This document shows, piece after piece, positions 1-13,384 of a stretch of DNA of 15,331 nucleotides. A model generated the notes under the pieces. That model was not told the DNA's origin. It worked only from the letters and a program-made list of their open reading frames with translations, and searched no databases. The position numbers were made by a program, and so were the translations under genes. Position 1 is the stretch's first letter; every line of letters starts with the position of its first letter. Source of the DNA: a virus (Duplodnaviria; Heunggongvirae; Uroviricota; Caudoviricetes); the IMG/VR virus record IMGVR_UViG_2706794665_000015; one strand, written 5' to 3'.

Positions 1-1131
1 TCAAATGACCAGTTTTTTCCACTCCTTACCGCGTACATCGTTGTAAATATCGGTCATTTTTTGATTCGAATGGCCTAGCAAAATTTTGGTATCAACCCCC
101 TGCTCTCTGAACAATCGCTCTGATAAAGATCTCTGCTCATGGAAAGAGGGTGGGGTGCCATTAGCACGCCAGTTGTAATCCACAGAATCCCGGGCTTTTT
201 TAAATGCAACGGTTAATGTTGCTGGCTTAACCATCCCGCCGCGCTTAGCTGTCCCTTTCGCGTGATGGTGGTGCAATAGCCACGGACTAAGAACGCAATC
301 GCGGCAGGATGACACTACATCATCCAGGGTGAGATTTAATTTATCGCAACGCAGAGCCAGAGGGATGGCAATCCGGGTTCCTGTTTTTTGCTGTTCGACA
401 TGAAGATAACCATCCCGGATATCCGAAAATTGCATTTTGCAAATATCTGAAAGGCGCTGGCCTGTCATCAGTGCCAGCAGCATACCGCGCTGTAAAAAGT
501 AACCATTCTTTTCCGCTGCGTTATAAATCATCATCCACTCATCAAAAGTCAGTCGCTGTCTTGATATCCGCACCTGCGGTTTTTTTGCCGATTCTGCAGG
601 GTTAAAGCCTGGCGGGACATCGCCCGTTTGCTGAGCTTCCCGGAAAACATCGATCAGTACTTTCCTGAAAATTTGTCCCATTCTGTTATGTCCTCTGGCC
701 TTGTACTCTTCCAGTACTGATACCACATCTTTTACGGTTATGGCATCTAACGGTCTGGTGCCAAAACGTTCATCAAATACCCTGAGAGGGGCCGCTTTCT
801 GTTTCAGCGTGTTGAGTTTGATCTCGCCGTTTTCATATCTTTCCTGTTGAATTTTTCTGTAATTATTCAGAAAAATGGTAACGGTTGATGAACCGCCGGT
901 ATCACTAATAATTTTCTCCTGCAGACTGAGCATTTGTTCCATTTGCTGCCGGGCAAGACGGCTGTTCGCTTCTGCTGCAATAGTTTCTGCCAGTTTCTGG
1001 TCAATACTGCCGAGACCGTGATTTTTGCCTGTTATGGGATGCCTGTAACGCCAGTAAACTTTGTTATTTCTTTTGTCAAAATACGGAGATAATCCCGGAA
1101 CATCGGTTTTATATTTTCGCGGGCGCGCCAT
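1..1131 (-). CDS. int: Phage tyrosine integrase (site-specific recombinase), complete; stop codon is the first three bases of the window
   Basis: 376-aa ORF; C-terminal region has the tyrosine-recombinase pattern (LGHSNQKMTDIYNDV with the catalytic Tyr context, upstream HHH...R cluster); sits at the prophage end next to an excisionase-like gene as in lambdoid int-xis modules. Confidence 0.9.
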   Translation of the reverse strand: MARPRKYKTDVPGLSPYFDKRNNKVYWRYRHPITGKNHGLGSIDQKLAETIAAEANSRLARQQMEQMLSLQEKIISDTGGSSTVTIFLNNYRKIQQERYENGEIKLNTLKQKAAPLRVFDERFGTRPLDAITVKDVVSVLEEYKARGHNRMGQIFRKVLIDVFREAQQTGDVPPGFNPAESAKKPQVRISRQRLTFDEWMMIYNAAEKNGYFLQRGMLLALMTGQRLSDICKMQFSDIRDGYLHVEQQKTGTRIAIPLALRCDKLNLTLDDVVSSCRDCVLSPWLLHHHHAKGTAKRGGMVKPATLTVAFKKARDSVDYNWRANGTPPSFHEQRSLSERLFREQGVDTKILLGHSNQKMTDIYNDVRGKEWKKLVI

Positions 1132-1357
1132 CTTCCAGTATCCTCTTCAAAGCAGGGTGATCTGTGGCGATCACCTCCGGCTTGTTTACCATTCCGACAA
1201 AGCGAGCTTGCGGATCCACTCGCCAGCGTCTTCCAACTTTTTTGGGGAGAGGAAATATCATTCCGGCTTTAGCGTATTTACTTAACGTACTCGGAGTAGG
1301 GACCGGTTCACTGAATTCCTCTTTTGCCCACTCAGTGAGCAGAATAAGTCTTGCCAT
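1109..1357 (-). CDS. xis: Excisionase (lambda Xis-like DNA-binding protein)
   Basis: 82-aa ORF immediately upstream of int, overlapping its start by 23 nt; the stretch LTEWAKEE...GMIFPLPKKVGRRWRV resembles the lambda Xis winged-helix region (LQEWNARQ...RIFPPPVKDGREY). Recalled similarity, not searched. Confidence 0.75.
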   Translation of the reverse strand: MARLILLTEWAKEEFSEPVPTPSTLSKYAKAGMIFPLPKKVGRRWRVDPQARFVGMVNKPEVIATDHPALKRILEDGAPAKI

Positions 1358-1421
1358 GAGCGTCGTTCGCTAATCATGGTCGCCGCCACTATAGCTGGTG
1401 GGCAACGACCGGGGTTGAACA

Positions 1422-3893
1422 TTAAAAATCAGCCTGATTTGGGATCAGTTTTTGCCAGATAGCTGAAACGTATTTTGCCTGGTAACGGGCGTCATCAAGT
1501 GCATTATGGCGCTCACCTTCGAATGGAATAGCCGTTCTGGCATCGAAGTCTATGGCTTTCCCCAGCTCAACGATTGTGCGTACATCGCGATCGTTGTAGT
1601 AACGCCACGGGCAGGGGATCCCCTGCCGTTCGTATGAACGGCGCAAAATCGTGTTGTCGAAGTTGGCTCCATTTCCCCAAACCTGAACAAAAAATTCACC
1701 GGAGTTTTCGTCGATAAATTCCCGCAATTGTAACAGTGCATCATCTAACGGGATTTCATCGGTCATAATGGCAGATTGCGCTTCGCGTGATTGCTTAAGC
1801 CACCATTTAATGGTGTCCCGATCAATGACTCCGCCAGCAGTTTCCAGATCGATAGTCTTACTAAATTCCGGTCCCATATCTCCGGTTTGCGGATCGAAAA
1901 ATATTGCACCTATTGAGATGATCGGGGCATCAGGATTTTTTCCCATGGTTTCAAGGTCGATCATTAGATGGTCACACGTCCTGCTGGTGGATGTGATTTC
2001 TTGATGACCGTTCACCTTAATTGAGTGATCTGCCGTCTCGCCAGTTTCATTATCGCTATCGTGATGCTGATTGCCGCCAGTGTTCTCCTTGTGTGGATGT
2101 TCAGCGCCTTCCATTTCCTCCGGATCATCTTCCTGAACTTCAGGCTGATACTCTTCATCGAATGTTTCCTGGTATGTTGCGTCGCCCATTACCGCGCCAC
2201 AATCAGGGCAGTTGCCGCCGCCGGTCTGACCGCAGGCGGTGCAGACTTTTTCCACTTCCTGTTGCGCCACTGATTCAGGCTGTTTCGTTTCTGGCTCGTT
2301 TTGTAACGCATTTGGGCTGTTTTGTTCCGCTTTCTGGTCGTTCTGTTCCGTTTCTTGCTGGTTCTGGTTCACAGAATCGCGGGTCTGGTTCCCCTTAACC
2401 CATTTCGGATCATTCGGGTCGCTAATCCCTTCAACAAATTCACCACGTGATACTGCAAGCAGTTCATCGGCGTCAGGCTGGCTGATATTGGCTGCCTGCA
2501 TAATTTTGTTTACTTCGTCAGCGGTAACTTTTACTGACCCTGGTTGTGCGGTCGTGTCAGATGCACCAGTATTTTGTTGTGAACCTGAGTATGTACCGTT
2601 TTTGCGGGCGAAATATTCTTCTTTCGTGATTTCAGTAGCCCCGGCAGACAGCGCCTTATCCAGACCAGAAAGTTTGTTTGCGCGACCGTATTTTTCGCCA
2701 TCCTTGTCGGTGAAGAGGAAGTAGAACGGCCCCTCACGTTCTACAGATGGTTCGACTTCCACTTTGCATTCGGTTTTTTCGTTGTCCGGAATTGCCGTTT
2801 CCACTGCATCAGTTTCTGGTACTGGCGACGAGAGAGTATCAGTTGCGCTCTGATTTGTTCCTTCATCTTCAAACACGCCCTTTGTAGTCAGGTATTCAGT
2901 AATGTATTTGTTCAGTGCCACAGGGTCTTTGTGAATGTCGATCGGACGTTCACGGACAAGGCCAAAAATAGTCTGGCGGTCGTAGCGAAGGGCATCAGGC
3001 TGTTTGCGCATTGATGCCGAGATACGCTTCCAGTCTTCGCGGTCGTTGTCGATAACTTCATTTTTTGCCCAGCGATGGATGCTGCCGTCAATGTTTCCGG
3101 CATCCACATCACCAGGCCAGAGAGCGTAGGCCAGTTCGTCATCCAGTGTTTTCCATGTCTGCTTGTATTCGCGATGAATGGCAGCAATGACCGGGTTGAT
3201 TTTTCCTGTTGAATTTTCAGTGTGCTGTTGATTGGCTCTGGCGCGGGCGAGATCAACAACAGACGTGTATTTTCCGGCTTCCTTGCGTTCACCTTCGCGA
3301 CGTTTTTTCCAGATGCGCATCTCTGCCTGAATTTCGGGCCATTTGGCACCAGGCTTACATTTATGCTTAACCCACCCGATGGCATGCAGCTTAAGCTCCG
3401 GATACATGGCGTTAACTTCTGGCATTTTCATCAACGCTTCAACGATATGTCCGTCGAATGTTGCCATGTCTTCCTGCAACAGTTCCTGCGCGCTAATCAC
3501 CATATCAACGGTGATGTTTTCACATGTGTCGAACTTAACCATGACAGCGTTCTGTACTTCAGGGGCCAGCTTGTCAAAAGTGACGTTCATCGGATCTGAT
3601 TCAGTCTCAACCGGGACAAAGGAAGCAGACGCCTCATCCCAGCGGTTTTCCTGCATATATTCAGCATCCCAGGAATCTAGGGCAGGGCGGGGTATACCGG
3701 GTTTATCCTCGCAGACAAGAAATTTATAAGCGCAGTCCTGAGCAGCCGGATAATGTTCCAGGAATTGCCAGTGAAATTTTGCGCGGGCGCGACGTTCATC
3801 ACCGGCTTCAATGGCAGTGGCTACAGCGACTGCACCTTCTTCCTTTATTGCCTGTTCGTCCGGAATGGCGGCGCAAATAAAGACTTTACTCAT
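1422..3893 (-). CDS. Prophage exonuclease, 823 aa: N-terminal domain of unknown function, acidic low-complexity linker with a Cys4 ribbon, C-terminal DEDDh (DnaQ-like) 3'-5' exonuclease domain
   Basis: Long ORF with GAGGT about 8 nt upstream of the ATG at 3893. C-terminal residues show Exo I (MIDLETMG) and Exo III (HNALDDARY) motifs of DEDDh exonucleases. Cys4 motif CTACGQTGGGNCPDCG is encoded near 2181-2250. Position between xis and dicB/ydfD matches the exonuclease slot of Qin-like prophages. Confidence 0.85.
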   Translation of the reverse strand: MSKVFICAAIPDEQAIKEEGAVAVATAIEAGDERRARAKFHWQFLEHYPAAQDCAYKFLVCEDKPGIPRPALDSWDAEYMQENRWDEASASFVPVETESDPMNVTFDKLAPEVQNAVMVKFDTCENITVDMVISAQELLQEDMATFDGHIVEALMKMPEVNAMYPELKLHAIGWVKHKCKPGAKWPEIQAEMRIWKKRREGERKEAGKYTSVVDLARARANQQHTENSTGKINPVIAAIHREYKQTWKTLDDELAYALWPGDVDAGNIDGSIHRWAKNEVIDNDREDWKRISASMRKQPDALRYDRQTIFGLVRERPIDIHKDPVALNKYITEYLTTKGVFEDEGTNQSATDTLSSPVPETDAVETAIPDNEKTECKVEVEPSVEREGPFYFLFTDKDGEKYGRANKLSGLDKALSAGATEITKEEYFARKNGTYSGSQQNTGASDTTAQPGSVKVTADEVNKIMQAANISQPDADELLAVSRGEFVEGISDPNDPKWVKGNQTRDSVNQNQQETEQNDQKAEQNSPNALQNEPETKQPESVAQQEVEKVCTACGQTGGGNCPDCGAVMGDATYQETFDEEYQPEVQEDDPEEMEGAEHPHKENTGGNQHHDSDNETGETADHSIKVNGHQEITSTSRTCDHLMIDLETMGKNPDAPIISIGAIFFDPQTGDMGPEFSKTIDLETAGGVIDRDTIKWWLKQSREAQSAIMTDEIPLDDALLQLREFIDENSGEFFVQVWGNGANFDNTILRRSYERQGIPCPWRYYNDRDVRTIVELGKAIDFDARTAIPFEGERHNALDDARYQAKYVSAIWQKLIPNQADF

Positions 3894-3985
3894 TTTGTTT
3901 TACCTCATTACAGATTTAAGGGTGAACAAATCCCTGCCATTGCTGGCATATAAGAATGAAACCGGATATTTATTACGGAACTGTT

Positions 3986-4177
3986 TTAAAGACCTGCCGG
4001 GATTTCGTTATTATCCTGGTGAATAACTTTATCGACCGGGTAACAGTTACCGGGAATTTTCTGTTCGGTTGCTGCAGTCACACACTCCTGCATTGTCCTG
4101 TGAACACTGACTGCAATATCAACTGGCTCTCCGGAAACAAGAAAAACTGTCAGAACAAGTGCAAATGCTGTATTCAT
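3986..4177 (-). CDS. ydfD: YdfD-like small lysis protein (63 aa, N-terminal signal/TM segment)
   Basis: Start chosen at the internal Met (MNTAFALVLTVFLVSG...) because AAGGA lies 8 nt upstream on the minus strand and its ATG overlaps the dicB stop (ATGA). Hydrophobic N-terminus; length and position downstream of dicB match my recollection of Qin YdfD. The ORF track's longer 81-aa version has no RBS. Confidence 0.65.
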   Translation of the reverse strand: MNTAFALVLTVFLVSGEPVDIAVSVHRTMQECVTAATEQKIPGNCYPVDKVIHQDNNEIPAGL

Positions 4178-4362
4178 TGTGCACATCCTTTTTGTATCGG
4201 ACGTAAACGGGCCAGCATTGAAAGAATGCATATTTTATTTAATAACTCCCGTTCGTGTTTTCTCTTGTTAATGGCATCTTCAGTAAATACAGGGTTACTG
4301 ATAGTGACACCAATTTCAAAACAACCTTCAGACGTATTAACGTTTGGTAATAACGTTTCCAT
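4174..4362 (-). CDS. dicB: DicB cell-division inhibitor (62 aa)
   Basis: Start at the internal Met of the 97-aa track ORF, preceded by GAGGA with a 7-nt spacer. The product METLLPNVNTSEGCFEIGVTISNPVFTEDAINKRKHERELLNKICILSMLARLRPIQKGCAQ closely matches my recollection of E. coli DicB and lies about 175 nt downstream of DicF, as in Qin. Confidence 0.75.
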   Translation of the reverse strand: METLLPNVNTSEGCFEIGVTISNPVFTEDAINKRKHERELLNKICILSMLARLRPIQKGCAQ

Positions 4363-4536
4363 TATCGCGTCCTCAACAATGAATTTTGTGATGCGGTGCC
4401 TGGTGCCTCCAGGTGACGTTAACCAGTTAACAATTAACGCCGGATACAGAGAATCCACCCATAACACTGTTTTTGGTTTTAACTGTTCCGCGTGCGCTGA
4501 GCCGCATTCACCGCATCACAAAATTCACTTTAAAAA

Positions 4537-4589
4537 GGGCGGCAGAGCAGTCACGGAGTAAAACTGATACCGCCAAACGTCACCAGAAA
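4537..4589 (-). ncRNA. dicF: DicF small regulatory RNA (53 nt; known to repress ftsZ and other mRNAs)
   Basis: Reverse complement of 4537-4589 is TTTCTGGTGACGTTTGGCGGTATCAGTTTTACTCCGTGACTGCTCTGCCGCCC, identical to the DicF sequence as I recall it, followed on the minus strand by TTTTT (plus 4532-4536). Confidence 0.85.
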
Positions 4590-4920
4590 ATTGATAACAG
4601 AGGGCGTTGCAGCGGGGTTGTCGCTTAAGCGTATGGTCAACCTGACAACCCGGTGTCCTCAACGGGGAAGGAATAACCCCGCCATACTTACCGCCGCGCC
4701 ATTTCGCGGAGTGCCACAACCGGAAGCGCACGGTCGAACTAAATTTAACGACACCGTACAGAGAGACCAATTTCGCCGTGCGCTTTCGCGTTATGCCCTG
4801 ACTTTTCAGGGACATATCCTTTCAGTAAACTGTCAGTGCCGGATGTTCACCCGTGTCCGGCGCACGCACTCCACCTGACCCGTGGAGAACTCCTTAATTA
4901 CCAACCCTCAGGAGGGTGAA

Positions 4921-5199
4921 ATGGATAAAAAGCAAATTGAGGCCCTGCAATCTATTATTGAAAAACAAGATGAAGCTATCAGGATTCTTTCATATCGCAC
5001 TGATATGATACTAAATATGCTTTCTGCATTAACGGCTGCGCTTGGTGGTACAAAAACAAACGTATACCGCGAAGTTGTTATTCAACAGATAGATAAATTT
5101 GAAAAAACCATACCAGGTATTAATGCTCATCTTGCAGAACAAGAGAAAGACCATGCTCTTATGGCAATTTCTTCAGTAGCTCTCCCGAAAGTTGAGTAG
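4921..5199 (+). CDS. Hypothetical 92-aa protein, predicted helical/coiled-coil, A+T-rich; encoded antisense to the surrounding leftward operon
   Basis: ATG at 4921 preceded by GGAGGG (4911-4916). Clean ORF with no competing minus-strand ORF across it. Visibly lower GC than flanks. Its 3' end overlaps the 3' end of the convergent 133-aa gene by 41 bp. Confidence 0.6.
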   Translation: MDKKQIEALQSIIEKQDEAIRILSYRTDMILNMLSALTAALGGTKTNVYREVVIQQIDKFEKTIPGINAHLAEQEKDHALMAISSVALPKVE

Positions 5200-5560
5200 T
5201 TTTAATTGTTGTTTTGAAATAATCACTGCTTTCACATTTGAGTGATTTCATGGCAATCCAAATGCGGGCCTCTGTGCCTGCATTTGGTTCCAGTTGCTGT
5301 AGACGTTTTGCGTCTTCCAAAAGTAAGGCGATAATGTGTTTCAGCTTCTCATCATTTGCTTGATTCTTGTTTTCAGGCGAATTCTGTCCGCCGAATAGGC
5401 GCTTCTCTTCATACAGACCTATAAAGGCACGACGCACGTTACCGGATATAGTATCGATGGTTTCTTTTTCTACGGTACTCAGGTCAAGAGTCGCCAGTTG
5501 AGAGCGAACCACATTCGATGCCATTTCCTGGAATGGTACTGGTAAATCTTTAAATTCCAT
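5159..5560 (-). CDS. Hypothetical protein (about 133 aa), second gene of the DicA-repressed leftward operon
   Basis: ORF track gives 5159..5572 (137 aa); I prefer the Met at 5560 because GAGG lies 6 nt upstream, whereas the 5572 ATG has no RBS but overlaps the upstream stop (TGATG). Occupies the position of ydfB/ydfC in Qin; identity not verifiable from memory. Confidence 0.55.
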   Translation of the reverse strand: MEFKDLPVPFQEMASNVVRSQLATLDLSTVEKETIDTISGNVRRAFIGLYEEKRLFGGQNSPENKNQANDEKLKHIIALLLEDAKRLQQLEPNAGTEARIWIAMKSLKCESSDYFKTTIKTTQLSGELLKKLP

Positions 5561-5571
5561 CGTCAACCTCA

Positions 5572-5724
5572 TCAGTCAGTGTTTCTGGTTAACCAGCGAC
5601 GCGCGCCAGCTTCAGTTTTAAACGTTTTGCTTCTGGTATACGTCATCGCGGTGAACGTACCGTCCTGGTTGGGGAACACGCCACATACCAGAGATTCGCT
5701 GTTGCCAAGATCGATAGTATCCAT
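5572..5724 (-). CDS. Small hypothetical protein (50 aa), first gene of the leftward early operon (YdfA-like position)
   Basis: The track ORF 5572..5829 starts at a TTG with no RBS, and its first 35 codons coincide with promoter and operator sequence. The first ATG (5724) is preceded by GAGGT with a 4-5 nt spacer. Confidence 0.5.
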   Translation of the reverse strand: MDTIDLGNSESLVCGVFPNQDGTFTAMTYTRSKTFKTEAGARRWLTRNTD

Positions 5725-5800
5725 GCTGACCTCATTACCCCTTAACGCCGGGTAGCGGAACTGTTTGCTGAGAACACCGTGCGGTGTCTTGATGGGTGGT

Positions 5801-5829
5801 AATTTAGTTTTCTCATGAATGTTGGTCAA
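5801..5829 (-). promoter_or_regulatory. Putative sigma70 promoter of the leftward early (dicB) operon: -35 TTGACC, 17-bp spacer, -10 TAAATT on the minus strand
   Basis: Minus-strand hexamers at plus 5829-5824 and 5806-5801, flanked and overlapped by two copies of the 14-bp operator motif; lies between the dicA stop and the first operon gene. Confidence 0.45.
5803..5816 (-). promoter_or_regulatory. Operator-like 14-bp palindromic motif copy (minus-strand ATGAGAAAACTAAA) overlapping the -10 of the leftward promoter
   Basis: 13/14 match to the motif at 6372-6385; inverted relative to the copy at 5839-5852. Confidence 0.45.
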
Positions 5830-5838
5830 GCATTTTTA

Positions 5839-5852
5839 ATGAGAAAACTCAA
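5839..5852 (+). promoter_or_regulatory. Operator-like 14-bp palindromic motif copy (ATGAGAAAACTCAA) just upstream of the -35 of the leftward promoter
   Basis: 13/14 identical to 6372-6385; internal dyad TGAG-AAAA-CTCA. Confidence 0.5.
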
Positions 5853-5867
5853 TATTTAATGCAAAAT

Positions 5868-5896
5868 AAAGCCAATACATTGAAATGTAAGGCTTT
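5868..5896 (-). terminator. Weak hairpin plus U-rich tract downstream of dicA (possible transcript end)
   Basis: AAAGCC…GGCTTT stem with a 17-nt loop, followed on the minus strand by ATTTTGCATT; large loop makes this uncertain. Confidence 0.25.
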
Positions 5897-5913
5897 AAAA
5901 TTTGTGAAGGGGG

Positions 5914-6321
5914 TTACTGATGTTTGTTACGTTTGCGAGCTTCTAGTAGCTCGGTGAATAGGCGATTAAAATTCTCAACGCGGGCACGGAGTTCGCTGAT
6001 TTGTGCTTGCTGCTCTGATTTTGGAAGTGCGCGATACAATCGCAACATCTCCAACTCATCTTCCGATAAGTCTAAGGCGCTGTTGAGTGCTACTGGTGGA
6101 TCTGGTGTTTTATCCTCGTCACCAAACAGTATCCAAGTTGGTGAACATTGCAATACCTCAGCCAGGCGATGCAAATTTTGCCCGCGCGGGGCTGTATGGT
6201 CGCTTTCCCATAGTGAAATTGATGAGCCAGATACGCCAGCGGCTTTGCTTAAATCGTTTTGACTTAAACCAACCTGTTTGCGTCTTTCTCTAATTCGTTG
6301 ACCTAAAGTTTTCTCGTTCAT
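5914..6321 (-). CDS. dicA: DicA-like prophage repressor (HTH XRE family, 135 aa, no peptidase domain)
   Basis: N-terminal HTH (QRIRERRKQVGLSQNDLSKAAGVSGSSISLWE) and overall similarity to E. coli DicA as recalled (…LQCSPTWILFGDEDK…RARVENFNRLFTELL); divergent from a Cro-like gene. Confidence 0.85.
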   Translation of the reverse strand: MNEKTLGQRIRERRKQVGLSQNDLSKAAGVSGSSISLWESDHTAPRGQNLHRLAEVLQCSPTWILFGDEDKTPDPPVALNSALDLSEDELEMLRLYRALPKSEQQAQISELRARVENFNRLFTELLEARKRNKHQ

Positions 6322-6342
6322 ATTTAGATATCTTAATAACCC

Positions 6343-6373
6343 TTGACTTGAGATTCCTTGAATGATTACTATT
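6343..6373 (+). promoter_or_regulatory. Putative rightward promoter for dicC/early-right operon: -35 TTGACT (6343-6348), weak -10 around 6366-6373
   Basis: Consensus-like -35 in the dicA-dicC intergenic region; the -10 candidates (TTACTA / TACTAT) are weak and abut the operator. Confidence 0.4.
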
Positions 6374-6385
6374 GAGAAAACTCAA
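6372..6385 (+). promoter_or_regulatory. Operator (perfect 14-bp palindrome TTGAGAAAACTCAA) at the rightward promoter
   Basis: Perfect dyad TTGAG-AAAA-CTCAA between the -10 region and the dicC RBS; two further copies occur at the leftward promoter. Confidence 0.55.
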
Positions 6386-6398
6386 CTTTGGAGGGGTG

Positions 6399-6626
6399 AT
6401 GTTTAAATCAGACGTAATTAATTTTTATGGGACGAAAGCCAAAGTAGCGAAAGCTGCTGGTGTTGATCCATCTGCTGTTTCTCAATGGGGGGAACTGGTT
6501 CCTGAAGGTCGCGCGATGCGCCTGCAAGAGGCATCCGGCGGGGAACTTCAGTACGACCCCAAAGTTTATGACGAATATCGTAAGGCAAAGCGGGCGGGGC
6601 GGTTGAACAATGAAAATCACCCCTGA
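6399..6626 (+). CDS. dicC: DicC-like (Cro analog) small regulator, 75 aa
   Basis: ATG at 6399 preceded by GGAGG (6390-6394); the track's TTG start at 6372 lies inside the operator. The product (…VPEGRAMRLQEASGGELQYDPKVYDEYRK…) matches my recollection of DicC; divergent from dicA. Confidence 0.75.
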   Translation: MFKSDVINFYGTKAKVAKAAGVDPSAVSQWGELVPEGRAMRLQEASGGELQYDPKVYDEYRKAKRAGRLNNENHP

Positions 6627-7161
6627 ACAGGTTTGTGAGGCTCTGGATGCCTGGGTATGTCGACCAGGAATGACACAGGAGCAAGCGACGATATTAATCA
6701 CGGAAGCATTCTGGGCTCTGAAAGAACGCCCGAACATCGATGTTCAACGCGTCACGTTTAATGATGGCGAGGTTGATCAACGGGCGCTGGGCGTTAACCG
6801 GGTGAAGATATTCGAACGCTGGAAAGCTATCGACACCAGGGATAAGCGGAAAAAATTCACGGCGCTGATTCCGGCAATTATGGAGGCTATCCGAATTAGT
6901 GATTTCAGGTTGTATCGTGAGATCAGTGATGGAAAAAGCATTACGTACATGATCGCCGGATTAAACAAAGAATATGGCGATGTGGTGGAGTCCGGGCTGC
7001 TTTTTGCGGATCCAGCTGTTGTGGAACGTGAGACTGACGAGCTTATAGAAAAAGCTATTGCTTTCAAGCATGCGTATCGTCAGCAATATCAATATTACTT
7101 TGCAGATAAACAAATGTCTGCCAGGGGTTTGTATGAGTATCGATGCACTACGATGGGCTAA
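6610..7161 (+). CDS. Hypothetical early protein (183 aa) in the post-cro position
   Basis: ORF starts 17 nt before the dicC stop (coupled) and continues into the replication gene; position corresponds to CII/YdaT-type regulators in related prophages. No motif I can assign. Confidence 0.55.
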   Translation: MKITPEQVCEALDAWVCRPGMTQEQATILITEAFWALKERPNIDVQRVTFNDGEVDQRALGVNRVKIFERWKAIDTRDKRKKFTALIPAIMEAIRISDFRLYREISDGKSITYMIAGLNKEYGDVVESGLLFADPAVVERETDELIEKAIAFKHAYRQQYQYYFADKQMSARGLYEYRCTTMG

Positions 7162-8173
7162 AAAGGTGAAAACCGGCAGTTCATCCAGTAAGTCTGTATT
7201 GACCTGGCTTGCTGATATGTGCGGTGCCGATTTGTGTGCATACCCGTCTGTATCTGCACTGGCAGAAGTAACGGAACTAAACAAAAAGACTGTGCAGGAC
7301 AGCTTACGACACCTGATGGAGATTGGGTTAATTGTTGATACCGGTGAGAGAAAAGGCAGAACAAAGCAAATTGTGGTGTACCGACTTATCGGTGTAGAAG
7401 AAAGTGTTGCCGAGCCTGAATACACCCAAAAACGGGAGTCTTTAAAGGTGGGTAAAATTGGTGCTGTTAATAAAAACAGTACCGAAAATGGTTATGTTTC
7501 AGCACAAAACAGACCCAAAAACGGAACTCTTAGCTGCATGGAAAATAACCAAAGACACCCAAATTTTCCATCAAAGACACCCAAAAACGGATCACGGAAC
7601 CCAAAGGAACCCAAAGATCTAAACCCCACACATAACGCACGCGAGAGTGCTCCGACCAGTGAGCAGGAAGTTTTGTCGTTACAGGCAGCACCCCTTGTAT
7701 TCCTGGATGGCCTGAGCGAACCCATCGGAAAATTTCCGATGACCGATAGCTGGTATCCGTCACGGGATTTTCGACGACGGGCTGCGTTGTGGGGGATGGC
7801 TTTGCCGGAGACAGAATTTACACCTGCTGAACTTGCCGCCTTCCGGGACTACTGGGCAGCGGAGGGGAAAGTGTTTACGCAGATTCAGTGGGAGCAGAAA
7901 TTCGCCCGTCACGTAAATCACGTCAGGGCGCAGGTTAAACCAGTCAGCAAGGGGGTAAACCATGCAGCAGCACCAGGTGGCACCGCATCACGGGCAGTTC
8001 AGGAAATTCGGGCAGCACGTGAGCAGTGGGAACGTGAAAACGGATTTATCAGCGACGGAAACGGTCTGGAAGCTGTGGGAACTCATGGGGGAGGTTTATT
8101 CGAACCGCTGGACCCAGAAGAACGGGGCCGCACCTTCGAAGCTCTGGATTGCACAGATTGGCGCGATGACTGA
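7133..8173 (+). CDS. Replication initiator (lambda O functional analog): N-terminal winged-helix domain, Pro/Lys/Asn-rich linker, C-terminal DnaT-like domain
   Basis: Start taken at MSIDALRWAKK (ATG 7133) within track ORF 7058..8173. N-terminal wHTH-like segment and a C-terminal DnaT-like motif region (…FTPAELAAFRDYWAAEGKVFTQIQWEQKFARHV…). The linker coding region carries iteron-like repeats. Confidence 0.75.
   Translation: MSIDALRWAKKVKTGSSSSKSVLTWLADMCGADLCAYPSVSALAEVTELNKKTVQDSLRHLMEIGLIVDTGERKGRTKQIVVYRLIGVEESVAEPEYTQKRESLKVGKIGAVNKNSTENGYVSAQNRPKNGTLSCMENNQRHPNFPSKTPKNGSRNPKEPKDLNPTHNARESAPTSEQEVLSLQAAPLVFLDGLSEPIGKFPMTDSWYPSRDFRRRAALWGMALPETEFTPAELAAFRDYWAAEGKVFTQIQWEQKFARHVNHVRAQVKPVSKGVNHAAAPGGTASRAVQEIRAAREQWERENGFISDGNGLEAVGTHGGGLFEPLDPEERGRTFEALDCTDWRDD
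7509..7620. repeat. Iteron-like direct repeats (core ACCCAAA, five copies) inside the initiator gene; candidate origin of replication
   Basis: ACCCAAA(A/G) at about 7513, 7557, 7579, 7600 and 7610, spaced in multiples of roughly 10-11 bp (44, 22, 21, 10); two longer copies GACACCCAAA...; falls in the linker region, as ori-lambda falls inside O. Confidence 0.5.
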
Positions 8174-8627
8174 GCAGCAAATCCGACAGGTCTGCCGCCA
8201 GTGCATGGACCGCTGCCGGGCGGGTGAAACATGGCCTCCGAACCTGGCTGAGTTTGTGGCGCTGATTTCAGAAAGCGGGGCCAATCCATTTGGCCTGACG
8301 GTGGATGCTGTGATGGAGGAGTACCGCCGCTGGCGTGATGAGTCCTGGCGATATGACGGAAGCGACAAATATCCGTGGCCTCAGCCTGTGCTGTACCACA
8401 TCTGCCTCGAAATGCGTACCAGAGGGATTGAGCGCCAGATGACGCAGGGTGAGTTAAAACGACTTGCGGAACGGCAACTGACGAAATGGGCAAAGCATGT
8501 TGGTAACGGGATGAGTGTTCCGCCAGTGCGACGACAACTGGAAGGGGCGAAACACCCGCAAGGGCCAACGCCAATTGAACGGCTGAAACAGGAATACGAA
8601 CGCCGGAAGGCAGCTGGTTTTATTTGA
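7962..8627 (+). CDS. Lambda-P-like replication protein (helicase loader), 221 aa
   Basis: C-terminal two-thirds align by eye with lambda P (YPWPQPVLYH… vs YPWKSNAHYW…; …ELKRLAERQL… vs …ELRRKAADEL…). ATG at 7962 has a G-rich RBS (GGGGG at 7951-7955). Overlaps the initiator ORF by 212 nt in another frame. Confidence 0.75.
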   Translation: MQQHQVAPHHGQFRKFGQHVSSGNVKTDLSATETVWKLWELMGEVYSNRWTQKNGAAPSKLWIAQIGAMTEQQIRQVCRQCMDRCRAGETWPPNLAEFVALISESGANPFGLTVDAVMEEYRRWRDESWRYDGSDKYPWPQPVLYHICLEMRTRGIERQMTQGELKRLAERQLTKWAKHVGNGMSVPPVRRQLEGAKHPQGPTPIERLKQEYERRKAAGFI

Positions 8628-8660
8628 ATCTGAGAAACGATTTTGTCGGAGGAAATTTTA

Positions 8661-8878
8661 ATGGAAACCGTATTTGACGCACTGAAAGCAATGGGAAAAG
8701 CCACATCGGTAGAACTGGCCGCGCGACTTGATATCAGTCGTGAAGAGGTTCTCAACGAGCTGTGGGAACTCAAAAGAAATGACGTCGTTGATAAAACTGG
8801 TCACACCTGGTTTCTGGCTGGCGAAGGTGAATCCCGGGTAACCGAAGAGCGGCCAGTAAAATCTGAAGCACAGGATAT
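8661..8878 (+). CDS. Hypothetical winged-helix-like protein, 3' end lost in the N run
   Basis: ATG at 8661 preceded by GGAGG (8649-8653); reading frame runs into the gap at 8879. Confidence 0.5.
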
Positions 8879-9153
8879 NNNNNNNNNNNNNNNNNNNNNN
8901 NNNNNNNNNNNNNNNNNNNNNNNNNNNNNNNNNNNNNNNNNNNNNNNNNNNNNNNNNNNNNNNNNNNNNNNNNNNNNNNNNNNNNNNNNNNNNNNNNNNN
9001 NNNNNNNNNNNNNNNNNNNNNNNNNNNNNNNNNNNNNNNNNNNNNNNNNNNNNNNNNNNNNNNNNNNNNNNNNNNNNNNNNNNNNNNNNNNNNNNNNNNN
9101 NNNNNNNNNNNNNNNNNNNNNNNNNNNNNNNNNNNNNNNNNNNNNNNNNNNNN
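8879..9153. other. Run of 275 N (assembly gap or masked sequence)
   Basis: Uninterrupted N characters; true length and content unknown. Confidence 1.
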
Positions 9154-10659: not shown

Positions 10660-10910
10660 NNNNNNNNNNNNNNNNNNNNNNNNNNNNNNNNNNNNNNNNN
10701 NNNNNNNNNNNNNNNNNNNNNNNNNNNNNNNNNNNNNNNNNNNNNNNNNNNNNNNNNNNNNNNNNNNNNNNNNNNNNNNNNNNNNNNNNNNNNNNNNNNN
10801 NNNNNNNNNNNNNNNNNNNNNNNNNNNNNNNNNNNNNNNNNNNNNNNNNNNNNNNNNNNNNNNNNNNNNNNNNNNNNNNNNNNNNNNNNNNNNNNNNNNN
10901 NNNNNNNNNN
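10660..10910. other. Run of 251 N (assembly gap or masked sequence)
   Basis: Uninterrupted N characters. Confidence 1.
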
Positions 10911-11176: not shown

Positions 11177-11345
11177 TTTTGGTTCAATTAAATACAACGT
11201 CAGTTTTGAAGCATGGCATGAACTGTTAATGGACTATGCAGAGTTACGTGGTGGCAGTGCTGCTGATGCTGAAGCATGGCGTGATGATTATGAAGCAGGA
11301 AAAACTCCGGTCGAAGCATATTGTGATGAGTGGGGCGATGAATGA
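11169..11345 (+). CDS. Small acidic hypothetical protein (58 aa); not in the supplied ORF track (under 60 aa)
   Basis: ATG at 11169 overlaps the upstream stop (ATGGCTGA), GAGGAA upstream; its stop overlaps the next gene's ATG (ATGA at 11342-11345). Confidence 0.5.
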   Translation: MADFGSIKYNVSFEAWHELLMDYAELRGGSAADAEAWRDDYEAGKTPVEAYCDEWGDE

Positions 11346-11857
11346 GCGAGATTAATTATCAGGAAGGGCATGAAACGGCAGGGCAGGCAAAACCAGTTGC
11401 ATGGCGATATCGCTACGTGAAAAAAGACGTTACAGACTTTCAGGGGAAGCCGTGGGCTGGTGACTGGAAATATGTACCGACAAAAGAGGATTGTAACGAC
11501 AGGCCGAACTATGAAATTCAGGCCTTATTCATCGGCCCGCCAGTCCCGGTGACATCAGAAGGACTGGTTAAAGCCGTGCGCTTTTATGAACAGGTAAAGC
11601 GTGAGAATCCGCCAGTCGAAACAGGAGCATGGAAGGATGCTGTTGACTGGGTGCTCAGAGAGGCCTGCTGCGCTGCCATTCTGGGTAAAGCCGACAATCC
11701 ACCAGCATCCGGCAATCAGGTTAGCGAATTAACAATGTGGGTTAAACGACTGGTCAGTCAACTGAAAAAAGCTCAGCCGGACTGCAAATTACCGGAGAAG
11801 GCGATGGATTACCTGAAACGAAATGGACTGATAAGCGTGGAGGATGTTTTACGATGA
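11342..11857 (+). CDS. Hypothetical protein (171 aa)
   Basis: Translationally coupled to the upstream small gene; clean ORF. Confidence 0.55.
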   Translation: MSEINYQEGHETAGQAKPVAWRYRYVKKDVTDFQGKPWAGDWKYVPTKEDCNDRPNYEIQALFIGPPVPVTSEGLVKAVRFYEQVKRENPPVETGAWKDAVDWVLREACCAAILGKADNPPASGNQVSELTMWVKRLVSQLKKAQPDCKLPEKAMDYLKRNGLISVEDVLR

Positions 11858-11977
11858 ATATTTAGACTAAAGAGTTTGTAACGCTATGTAAGTGATTTTT
11901 TCTGGTTTAGATATTTATATGTCCGGCCAAATTGAGGTGTGTTTAAATGTAATTGCACATTGATTGTAGGGGGAATA

Positions 11978-12157
11978 ATGAAAAACGCATTGCAGTTTTT
12001 GTTTGTTGCGTTCTGGTTGTTCGCATCATGTATGCCCATCATCTTCACAGCAAGGTATATGGAAAAAATTGATGTTTTGATATTAATGTTTGGACATATA
12101 AATGCCCTTTTTTTAGGGGTGTTCATGGCGGTCATGTGCATTGAATACTGGCGGTAA
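11978..12157 (+). CDS. Small hydrophobic protein (59 aa, two predicted transmembrane helices)
   Basis: ATG at 11978 preceded by AGGGGGAA; A+T-rich; the track's GTG start at 11939 adds 13 residues with no RBS. Confidence 0.45.
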   Translation: MKNALQFLFVAFWLFASCMPIIFTARYMEKIDVLILMFGHINALFLGVFMAVMCIEYWR

Positions 12158-12212
12158 ATACAGCGAACGCCATTGGTTTAGTTGGATATTTACTGTGCCG
12201 GACAAAAACGGT

Positions 12213-12240
12213 TTGCGGGGAAATCTTAGTTAAGTAGAAT
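12213..12240 (+). promoter_or_regulatory. Putative promoter of the hok transcript (-35 TTGCGG, 16-bp spacer, -10 TAGAAT)
   Basis: Hexamers at 12213-12218 and 12235-12240, about 120 nt upstream of the leader ORF, consistent with the long structured 5' leader of hok-family mRNAs. Confidence 0.35.
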
Positions 12241-12359
12241 AACTGCGGGTGCTTGAGGCTATCTGTCTCAGGCATGAACACCAAAAGGCAGATAGAGAAA
12301 AGCCCCAGTTAACATTACGCGTCCTGCAAGACGCTTAACATTAATCTGAGGCCATATCT

Positions 12360-12419
12360 ATGCGACACATAGAGATTAGCCTCTTACGGACCGAAAGGTC
12401 AAGGAGAAGCAGGCTATGA
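12360..12419 (+). CDS. Short upstream ORF (19 codons) ending in ATGA overlap with hok; mok-like coupling element
   Basis: ATG at 12360 with GAGG upstream; its TGA (12417-12419) overlaps the hok ATG (12416-12418). Confidence 0.3.
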   Translation: MRHIEISLLRTERSRRSRL

Positions 12420-12571
12420 AGCAGCAAAAGGCGATGTTAATCGCCCTGATCGTCATCTGTTTAACCGTCATAGTGACGGCACTGGTAACGAGGAAAGACC
12501 TCTGCGAGGTACGAATCCGAACCGGCCAGACGGAGGTCGCTGTCTTCACAGCTTACGAACCTGAGGAGTAA
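12416..12571 (+). CDS. hokD: Hok-family type I toxin (HokD/RelF-like), 51 aa
   Basis: Product MKQQKAMLIALIVICLTVIVTALVTRKDLCEVRIRTGQTEVAVFTAYEPEE has the Hok signature (single TM helix then RKDLCE…); GGAG 7 nt upstream. Coordinates may be off by 1 (hand-indexed). Confidence 0.85.
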   Translation: MKQQKAMLIALIVICLTVIVTALVTRKDLCEVRIRTGQTEVAVFTAYEPEE

Positions 12572-12641
12572 GAGACCCGGCGAGGGAGAAATCCCTCGCC
12601 ACCTCTGATGTGGCAGGCATTCTCAACGCACCCGCACTTAA

Positions 12642-12671
12642 CCCGCTTCGGCGGGTTTTTGTTTTTATTTT
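12642..12671 (+). terminator. Rho-independent terminator of the hok transcript
   Basis: CCCGC-TTCG-GCGGG hairpin followed by TTTTTGTTTTTATTTT; preceded by a second perfect 9-bp stem (GGCGAGGGA-GAAA-TCCCTCGCC, 12579-12600) like the 3' fold-back element of hok mRNAs. Confidence 0.7.
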
Positions 12672-13105: not shown

Positions 13106-13384
13106 ATGGCACGCAACGCAAAATATTACAAACATGATAATTCGACCGTTCTTGCCCACACGCACGAGCGGTATTCTCACGCATTTAAGTCAGACTGGTA
13201 CCAGCATCCCCCATGCACTGAAGAACAGGCCGAATGGCTCATTCAGTGTTACCGCAGGCGCGGATGCGAGGTTAAAAAAGCCCTTAGCCTCGACTACCGT
13301 CACTGGATAATCTCCGTCAGGCTTCCTTACTCTGAACGCCCACCGCGTCCGTCCCGCACATTCCAGCAACGCATCTGGAGGTAA
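13106..13384 (+). CDS. Hypothetical protein (92 aa)
   Basis: ATG at 13106 preceded by GGAGAA; stop lies 1 nt before the ydfU-like start. Confidence 0.45.
   Translation: MARNAKYYKHDNSTVLAHTHERYSHAFKSDWYQHPPCTEEQAEWLIQCYRRRGCEVKKALSLDYRHWIISVRLPYSERPPRPSRTFQQRIWR

Follow-up and report, generated by a model that had tools for sequence, protein, structure and literature searches.

Is the A+T-rich gap just 5' of the hok toxin gene in a lambdoid prophage an empty spacer, or does it hold a gene, and if it does, what might the product do? We asked this of a 15,331-nucleotide (nt) stretch of viral DNA (IMG/VR record IMGVR_UViG_2706794665_000015; the window, below, is this whole stretch), which is the early region of a Qin-like prophage of Escherichia coli. 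An original prediction, made from the letters alone, had pointed to a hydrophobic 59-amino-acid (aa) open reading frame (ORF) with a good ribosome-binding site, set in low-GC DNA between early-operon accessory genes and hok. Here we report that this frame, on the plus strand at 11978-12157, is very probably a genuine protein-coding gene left unannotated by RefSeq, and that it belongs to a new family of small proteins, narrow in distribution and split into two lineages, whose general kind is familiar and which holds no mechanistic surprise. The frames and signals of the gap read as follows.

11858-12199, no strand: A+T-rich island, a mosaic module carrying the small gene (from the GC profile and about 98-100% identity despite differing flanks)
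11968-11973, plus strand: Shine-Dalgarno sequence AGGGGG, read from the sequence, 4 nt 5' of the ATG
11978-12157, plus strand: small gene, 'type A', for a 59-aa predicted two-helix inner-membrane protein (from the type B homologue, coding constraint and helix prediction)
11884-12141, minus strand: antisense 85-aa shadow ORF, rejected as a gene (annotated in three phage records as 'hornerin' or hypothetical)

The description of the frame and of its setting proved accurate. The ORF runs from ATG at 11978-11980 to TAA at 12155-12157, its product is MKNALQFLFVAFWLFASCMPIIFTARYMEKIDVLILMFGHINALFLGVFMAVMCIEYWR, with a grand average of hydropathy (GRAVY) of 1.2, and hok follows at 12416-12571. GC falls to 0.35-0.39 across 11700-12150 against about 0.5 on either side (0.364 in the island, 0.378 in the ORF). 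The ribosome-binding site becomes a perfect AGGAGG Shine-Dalgarno sequence through a G>A change at 11971 in 61 of 200 related loci.

Taken on its own, the length of the frame is not beyond chance. The island strand is T-rich (37% T), and a T-rich strand automatically reads as Phe, Leu, Ile and Val. Among 2000 dinucleotide shuffles of the 343-nt island, 23% contained an ATG-started ORF of 59 codons or more, and 31% a frame open for 72 codons or more; the program-made list of ORFs gives a 72-aa, GTG-started version of the present frame, from 11939. The island could thus be non-coding A+T-rich spacer or regulatory DNA 5' of the hok promoter, with a hydrophobic peptide read off its T-rich strand by accident. 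It is the comparison with a diverged homologue that places the frame above chance.

The original prediction had proposed a homology search. An exhaustive phmmer (HMMER) search of 1.84 billion representative proteins uncovered a second subfamily, type B (P0085/P0080), which is exactly 59 aa long and 44% identical to type A without a gap. Its locus is a decayed prophage remnant at the Rac attachment site, found at 5001-5180 of our reference locus L208 and at 1,651,669-1,651,848 (plus strand) of CFT073 (NC_004431.1). The order there is ttcA, an integrase fragment, about 700 bp of A+T-rich DNA, the type B ORF, a truncated hok remnant, ABC-transporter fragments, uspF and ompN. The hok remnant 3' of the ORF is 81-82% identical to hokD over 62 nt; it lies at about 5235-5310 of L208 and consists of the 3' half only; the 5' half is deleted, and so are the mok/sok region and the hok promoter. 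Type B keeps AGGG 7 nt 5' of its ATG, and about 75 nt 5' of the ORF (L208 4918-4926) stands a perfect extended -10 element, TGATATAAT. An in-frame TAA six codons 5' of the type B ATG leaves the shared ATG as the sole start, so the 72-aa GTG form of type A is not the conserved product.

The two types share their length and their start and stop positions. ORF DNA is 60% identical between them, against 52% both upstream and downstream, and there is no gap event in the 180 ORF columns versus six in the flanks (5 in 126 upstream columns and 1 in 46 downstream). In the ORF frame the proportion of non-synonymous differences (pN) is 0.33 and that of synonymous differences (pS) 0.72, giving a dN/dS of about 0.19, a rough value since dS is saturated at this distance. 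In the other five frames pS/pN lies at about 0.8-1.7 and/or stops occur, four of the five having stops in both types, and a silent-change excess of this size is seen in the ORF frame only. When the observed substitutions were re-dealt over sites of the same base in 20000 trials, the frame was stop-free in 1.9% of them (P=0.019), and 17.5 +/- 2.5 identical residues were expected where 25 are observed (P=0.002); none of the 20000 trials was both stop-free and at the observed BLOSUM score.

The same comparison settles the opposite strand. The antisense 85-aa ORF is the longest in the island, it is annotated in ON470612, ON470619 and PV340562, and it has a sequence cluster of 157 members, all of which could speak for a real gene on that strand. 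Its frame is broken by 2 stops in type B, its pS of 0.41 is close to its pN of 0.40, and it has no PHROG match. It behaves as a shadow of the plus-strand gene; we rejected it as a gene, and the idea that it is real is hardly credible.

The original prediction named disruption of the frame in close relatives as a ground for abandoning it. Of the 202 type A loci examined, 199 have an undamaged ORF, and nucleotide diversity (pi) is lowest within the ORF, at 0.006 versus 0.013-0.015 in the remaining island; values rise to 0.026-0.041 over the hok promoter and leader and to 0.16 at the end of the upstream gene (11777-11857). The frame contains a T7 run (12108-12114) followed by G4 (together 12108-12118), and Logan (read-archive) assemblies include +1 frameshift versions (T8 or G5) with 55-aa products. 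Such frameshifts were found in none of the 202 type A loci, and the Logan versions may be sequencing or assembly errors. A phase-variable gene or a pseudogene arising through the T7 run was considered and rejected on the same count, 0 of 202.

Several other observations, together with the unexceptional length of the frame and the saturated dS, weigh against the gene or against its recent maintenance. As there are only two lineages, the coding comparison rests on one deep split. The Prokaryotic Genome Annotation Pipeline (PGAP) of RefSeq never calls the gene, neither in the 40 genomes sampled for the type A locus nor in the 26 rows for type B, and our literature search found no paper with either peptide sequence and no expression data. 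All 10 polymorphic sites in the type A ORF are non-synonymous (A16V, M28I, I31V, M37I, H40Y, A43V, L44I, V48G and M53T in the main set, plus V52G), as are 3 of 3 in type B. None of the 13 is silent where one fifth to one quarter would be expected at random, a mild excess (P about 0.01-0.07 by our own estimate) which fits relaxed or diversifying recent selection, unlike recent purifying selection. One allele replaces His40, otherwise common to both types, by Tyr.

The sole copy of intermediate divergence adds to these doubts. The island of ECMA0423 (CP178302; 3870-4240 of our locus L086), about 90% identical, holds a pseudogene, stopped at codon 28, with three separate 1-nt deletions and one insertion of 3 nt; the deletions, net -3, restore the original frame near its end. 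The Hok protein encoded beside it is identical; the upstream gene carries a frameshift too, and an integrase borders the region. The ECMA0423 and type B copies were also considered as allelic remnants of one chromosomal site, which we rejected, as only the hok piece matches.

The reading as a chance ORF can draw on the shuffles, on the missing PGAP call, on the exclusively non-synonymous type A polymorphisms, on disruption in ECMA0423 and 2 other loci of the 202, and on the Logan versions. Against it stand the shared length, start and stop, the absence of gaps in the ORF alone, the excess of amino-acid identity, the stop-free frame, and a pN well below pS in this frame only. We therefore consider a chance ORF improbable. 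Within type A, a common allele combines the AGGAGG Shine-Dalgarno sequence with I31V, M37I and H40Y; this combination and the lack of synonymous polymorphism hint at a functional divergence between alleles.

How common is the gene? Among 5426 complete E. coli genomes, 1569 (about 29%) carry the island, which is always at least 95% identical, too similar for near relatives to be informative. The exact 59-aa type A sequence is found on at least 1000 contigs in submitter annotations and UniRef, as 'membrane protein' or hypothetical. Type B is carried by about 1045 of the 5426 genomes, Nissle 1917, ST131 and CFT073 among them; carriers of the family as a whole include ST131, ATCC 25922, CFT073 and Nissle 1917, and some genomes, for example NZ_CP124332, hold both types. 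Both show the features that mark the family, namely a length of 59 aa, the motifs S17-C18-x-P20-I-I-x-T24, L36-x-F-G39-x-x-N42-A-L44 and E56-x-W-R59, and a position upstream of hok in a lambdoid prophage or its remnant. Profile searches of the protein database, metagenome contigs and GTDB species genomes yielded no third subfamily, and the two lineages are confined to E. coli and Shigella.

Small membrane proteins are the bacterial gene class most often missed by annotation. In this case a very common gene family appears in RefSeq as an empty gap at both loci and, in three phage records, on the wrong strand. The two-lineage comparison fixes frame, start and strand with reasonable confidence, so that the gene can enter annotation and direct testing. 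New small membrane proteins have been listed for CFT073 in a ribosome-profiling (Ribo-seq) preprint (10.64898/2026.09.28.754932); its SMP7 sits in the microcin/F1C island and not at the type B locus.

What would the product look like? The original prediction of a two-helix membrane protein holds at the level of modelling: AlphaFold2, given a shallow input alignment, places helices at 2-24 and 30-58 in a helical hairpin (mean predicted local distance difference test score 73), and hydropathy, high in both types, agrees with two helices. We regard an inner-membrane helical hairpin as the likely form. Positive charges lie at both ends (K2 in type A, R2-K3 in type B, R59 in both), and the loop at 26-32 is neutral in type A and carries a net charge of -2 in type B. 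By the positive-inside rule, positively charged ends are cytoplasmic. Given the terminal charges and the neutral-to-acidic loop, the predicted topology is N-in/C-in, with K2 and R59 in the cytoplasm and the short loop in the periplasm.

The residues common to both types form three motifs, S17-C18-x-P20-I-I-x-T24, L36-M-F-G-H-x-N-A-L-x-x-G-V-F49 and E56-x-W-R59. Identical positions thus comprise S17, C18, P20, I21, I22 and T24 in the C-terminal half of helix 1; L36, M37, F38, G39, H40, N42, A43, L44, G47, V48 and F49 in the N-terminal half of helix 2; and E56, W58 and R59. On the modelled topology the conserved clusters are predicted to be the periplasm-proximal halves of the two helices, the cytoplasm-proximal halves and the loop being variable. 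They include a small-xxx-small-xxx-small run, G39/A43/G47, and N42 as a buried mid-membrane Asn. Small-xxx-small runs and buried polar residues are classic drivers of helix-helix association.

The invariant S17-C18 also raises the possibility of a lipoprotein precursor, in which residues 1-17 would be a signal peptide removed by signal peptidase II at a lipobox (L-F-A-S|C in type A, I-V-I-S|C in type B), leaving a 42-aa lipid-anchored peptide with one C-terminal helix. The PROSITE-type lipobox pattern is {DERK}(6)-[LIVMFWSTAG](2)-[LIVMFYSTAGCQ]-[AGS]-C, with the Cys at 15-35 and a K or R in the first 7 residues. The stretch ending in S17-C18 fits it in type A, in the A16V/I31V/M37I/H40Y allele and in type B, so that all alleles of both types conform, with an early K or R and the Cys at 18; by our own rough estimate about 10% of one-Cys helices would fit by chance. 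The hydrophobic stretch continues for 7 residues past the Cys (MPIIFTA in type A, VPIILTS in type B), unlike in mature lipoproteins, AlphaFold gives one continuous helix from 2 to 24, and position -3 is Phe in type A. Because the hydrophobic sequence continues after C18, cleavage seems the less likely reading, and we consider a lipoprotein unlikely; as a structural variant it would be compatible with either of the functional readings discussed below.

The gene sits in a gap that annotation leaves between two named neighbours. The RefSeq chromosome NZ_CP032204 is 99.9-100% identical to the window and gives the order of genes: a cI-like repressor, Cro, a YdaT-family gene, DnaT-like and P replication genes, several DUF accessory genes, the 171-aa hypothetical, the unannotated gap with the small ORF, hokD, rem, a hypothetical, DUF968/YdfU, RusA and Q. 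Runs of N mask 8879-9153 (275 nt) and 10660-10910 (251 nt) of the window; judged from the identical RefSeq locus, they fall in a DUF1627 gene and in a hypothetical gene after an Ea22-like gene. The neighbours of the island are these.

11342-11857, plus strand: upstream early-operon gene, 171 aa (phrog_660, E=4e-75; 'hypothetical protein' in RefSeq; 3' end in two deeply diverged alleles)
12212-12240, plus strand: putative hok mRNA promoter, TTTGCG, 17 nt, TAGAAT (sequence reading, just 5' of the Rfam sok/hok-leader match)
12247-12418, plus strand: hok mRNA leader with the mok/sok region (Rfam RF01794 sok, 106.7 bits, E=1e-24)
12402-12417, plus strand: junction sequence containing GGAGAAGCAGGCTAT, insertion point of the block of insertion sequence (IS), flxA, ydfV and relBE in Qin-type prophages
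12416-12571, plus strand: hok (HokD-type) toxin gene, 51 aa (Pfam PF01848 HOK_GEF, E=1.2e-23; hokD in RefSeq)

Farther downstream, 12580-12661 gives a weak Rfam match to the Salmonella prophage small RNA IsrK (26.6 bits against a gathering score of 50), which overlaps the 3' end of hok and the hok terminator (12640-12657). A 92-aa ORF (phrog_1212) at 13106-13384 lies between rem and the DUF968/ydfU gene; its homologue is labelled 'toxin to Rem' in one phage record and Rem 'antitoxin' in another.

Does the small gene belong to hok/sok? Both diverged lineages stand directly 5' of hok on the same strand with no terminator between, an arrangement that would suit a functional partner, either a Hok immunity or modulator protein or an upstream frame that tunes hok expression by translation. 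The ORF ends 55 nt before the putative hok/sok promoter, and no terminator-like site was found in 11600-12600, hence none between the two. Yet the island is absent from most hok loci: a hok match occurs in 4942 genomes, against 1538 for the island in this count, and homology among the hok loci that lack it begins only at about 12200. In PhiR42_1 the ORF lies 3.3 kb from hokD; the type B ORF stays intact in about 1045 genomes with half of its hok deleted, and ECMA0423 has kept hok with the ORF destroyed. Since either gene persists where the other is lost, and the majority of hok loci are without the island, dependence on hok is very unlikely. The small gene is historically linked to hok/sok and separable from it.

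A looser form of the link deserves mention. The small protein and hok may be an old two-gene membrane cassette, in which the 59-aa protein, as a hairpin or anchored by lipid, would be a partner working at the periplasmic side of the inner membrane and might, for example, gate or guard against Hok-type pores or block phage DNA entry. We hold this to be a long shot. If true, it would add an unrecognised component to prophage hok loci, one whose own function was kept after hok decayed, as in the Rac-site remnant of CFT073 and Nissle 1917.

How did the island come to lie here? Prophages with strongly differing flanks share it at about 98-100% identity. On the left, the upstream gene comes in two deeply diverged alleles, and three deletion forms of it occur; its 3' end (11777-11857) has alleles up to 31% different, and there are deletion forms without 11615-11692 or 11615-11777. 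A variable gene end beside a near-invariant island points to a sharp recombination boundary at the stop codon of the upstream gene. To the right, the hok leader falls into two haplogroups. The hok module of phage vB_EcoS-689R5 is bordered by other accessory genes instead (Ea22, EaA and others), and this arrangement, with the hok loci whose homology starts only at about 12200, indicates that the slot is variable.

The original prediction, arguing from the Qin gene order, had proposed that this slot exchanges cargo and that the small gene occupies the place where Qin carries relBE. The first part agrees with the variable slot just described; the second does not stand, the slot being other than that of relBE. 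A comparison of the junction across related prophages, which had also been suggested, located relBE elsewhere. In PhiR42_1 (PV340562, our locus L003; from ECOR13), an undeleted version of Qin which is 100% identical to K-12 from flxA to rem, the order is the island with an intact ORF, the sok/mok leader, a 3.27-kb block (IS, flxA, ydfV, relB and relE) and hokD, the block lying exactly between the leader and the hokD start codon. The 15-nt GGAGAAGCAGGCTAT stands at both junctions of the block, at 4700-4715 and 7990-8005 of L003. Four IMG/VR loci (L079, L080, L082 and L083) likewise carry the island, its ORF intact, and the sok/mok leader, and enter the block at the same left junction, and L003 and L079-L083 break from the window at 12417.

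Island and relBE thus co-occur in one phage, with relBE inserted downstream of the island. By these alignments, relBE (with flxA and ydfV) is an insertion separating hokD from its sok/mok leader, with the small gene upstream of both and unrelated to relBE. The Qin prophage of K-12 (L087) matches the window only from 12402 on. It matches L003 at 1-1118 and 5918-8714 with 99.7-100% identity and is missing 1119-5917, the part with the replication genes, the island, the sok leader and the IS. K-12 Qin is a deletion derivative of a PhiR42_1-like phage, the small gene having been lost in that large deletion. This corrects the picture of the relBE-hokD region of Qin, in which relBE is an insertion cutting hokD from its sok/mok leader; our literature search on hokD, relBE and Qin found nothing relevant.

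Does the product belong to a known family? It belongs to none of those tested. No Pfam family matches the 59-aa protein at E<=0.1, which leaves no HOK_GEF, GhoT/OrtT or holin match, and sequence searches of PHROG, NCBIfam, PADLOC and PDB gave no usable relative. The only profile with any signal is TIGR03647, with type B (E=0.031, 14.5 bits against a cut-off of 26.05) and not with type A. A fold comparison of the AlphaFold model with viral structures and with the PDB found nothing at E<=0.001, the hairpin being generic. At the RNA level, the island has no Rfam family, sok being confined to 12247-12418; the fold of the leader is not significant (z=+0.29 in type A, -1.38 in type B); no promoter-like site was found on either strand of the type A island; the promoter-like site on the antisense strand of type B has no conserved counterpart in type A; and no partner ORF next to the small gene is conserved between the types. 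A type I toxin-antitoxin locus was considered and rejected, the island being without an Rfam family, a type A promoter or terminator, a conserved antisense promoter or a structured leader.

What, then, might the protein do? We propose that the small gene is an accessory cargo module of the early-right operon in Qin-like lambdoid prophages. Because neither a promoter nor a terminator of its own can be recognised in type A, its transcription would depend on read-through from the early promoter when the prophage is induced or the phage infects, and we lean modestly towards such early-operon expression. The product would insert into the inner membrane as a hairpin. Its conserved outer-leaflet surface may act by specific association with another membrane helix, an idea suggested by the conserved periplasm-proximal residues, including G39/A43/G47 and the Asn.

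One form of such association would be self-assembly. In that case the protein would be a membrane-damaging toxin of the GhoT/OrtT or viroporin kind, in which G39/A43/G47 and N42 build an oligomer that depolarises the inner membrane and helps to shut off the host, to abort the infection or to time lysis. In size and in having two helices the protein equals GhoT, small-xxx-small residues are conserved, polar Asn, His, Ser and Thr lie within the membrane, and the gene adjoins another membrane toxin, hok; no antitoxin would be needed, as the operon is repressed in the lysogen. The family searches speak against this, as they gave no GhoT/OrtT, Hok or holin match, and neither an antitoxin gene nor an antisense promoter nor a structured leader is conserved between the types. 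Type B, moreover, is intact in about 1045 genomes behind its perfect extended -10, where a potent toxin would hardly be tolerated unless silenced. We find a toxin doubtful, and self-assembly into a pore less likely than the binding of a partner.

The alternative that we favour is that the protein binds or occludes a host inner-membrane protein and so interferes with the host or with a rival phage, by exclusion or host take-over. Host-protein binding is preferred because the conserved surface is specific, because the recent changes all alter amino acids, and because type B persists behind an extended -10. This role is itself tentative, and that it is drawn from residue patterns only counts against it. 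For the combined explanation, a real gene, a membrane hairpin, early-operon expression and interference by partner binding, we see the case as evenly poised, a grade that is a compromise over these layers. Prophage mini-proteins of this kind have repeatedly proved to be exclusion, toxicity or host-control factors, and a phenotype for the 59-aa protein, if found, would add a very common factor of that sort.

These readings can be set against systems already described. GhoT, of 57 aa, and OrtT (PF10753) are near-equal in length to our protein, with two predicted transmembrane (TM) helices, no soluble domain, and a place in E. coli in or beside toxin-type loci. The resemblance is one of size and helices only, as the small gene has no Pfam or PADLOC match and no GhoS-like partner and lies in a prophage early operon. 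Hok/Gef peptides (PF01848) are likewise small, hydrophobic inner-membrane peptides of prophage or plasmid origin, and physically adjacent in both lineages. Hok has one helix and a periplasmic tail under the control of mok/sok, whereas the 59-aa protein has two helices, no HOK_GEF match and neither an antisense RNA nor a leader fold.

The original prediction had also allowed a holin-like protein, and pinholin S21-68 and the class II holins do share a length of about 60-70 aa, two TM helices and an origin in lambdoid phages. Position and anatomy fail to support that idea. The small gene lies outside the lysis cassette, upstream of rem, ydfU, rusA and Q, and its product has a single start without a dual-start motif, a C-terminal tail of only four residues (E-Y-W-R) and no family match. 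TIGR03647, the small subunit of a sodium/substrate symporter, is a two-helix accessory membrane peptide of about 77 positions; the type B score lies below the cut-off and the neighbours are phage genes, with no transporter gene adjacent, and the match is most likely compositional. Colicin lysis proteins, entericidins and Cor/Llp are small bacterial and phage lipoproteins with a positive N-terminus, a hydrophobic run, and a precursor of similar size, features our protein shares along with its lipobox-like xSC at 18; it differs in staying hydrophobic beyond the Cys and then forming a second hydrophobic helix.

T4 Imm and HK97 gp15 are small phage inner-membrane exclusion proteins, which our protein resembles in setting. 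There is no sequence relationship, and they are expressed where they protect, whereas type A has no detectable promoter of its own. Like the 59-aa protein, they are short phage membrane proteins without an enzymatic domain, narrowly distributed and fast-evolving; they act by contact with membrane components, as the 59-aa protein would.

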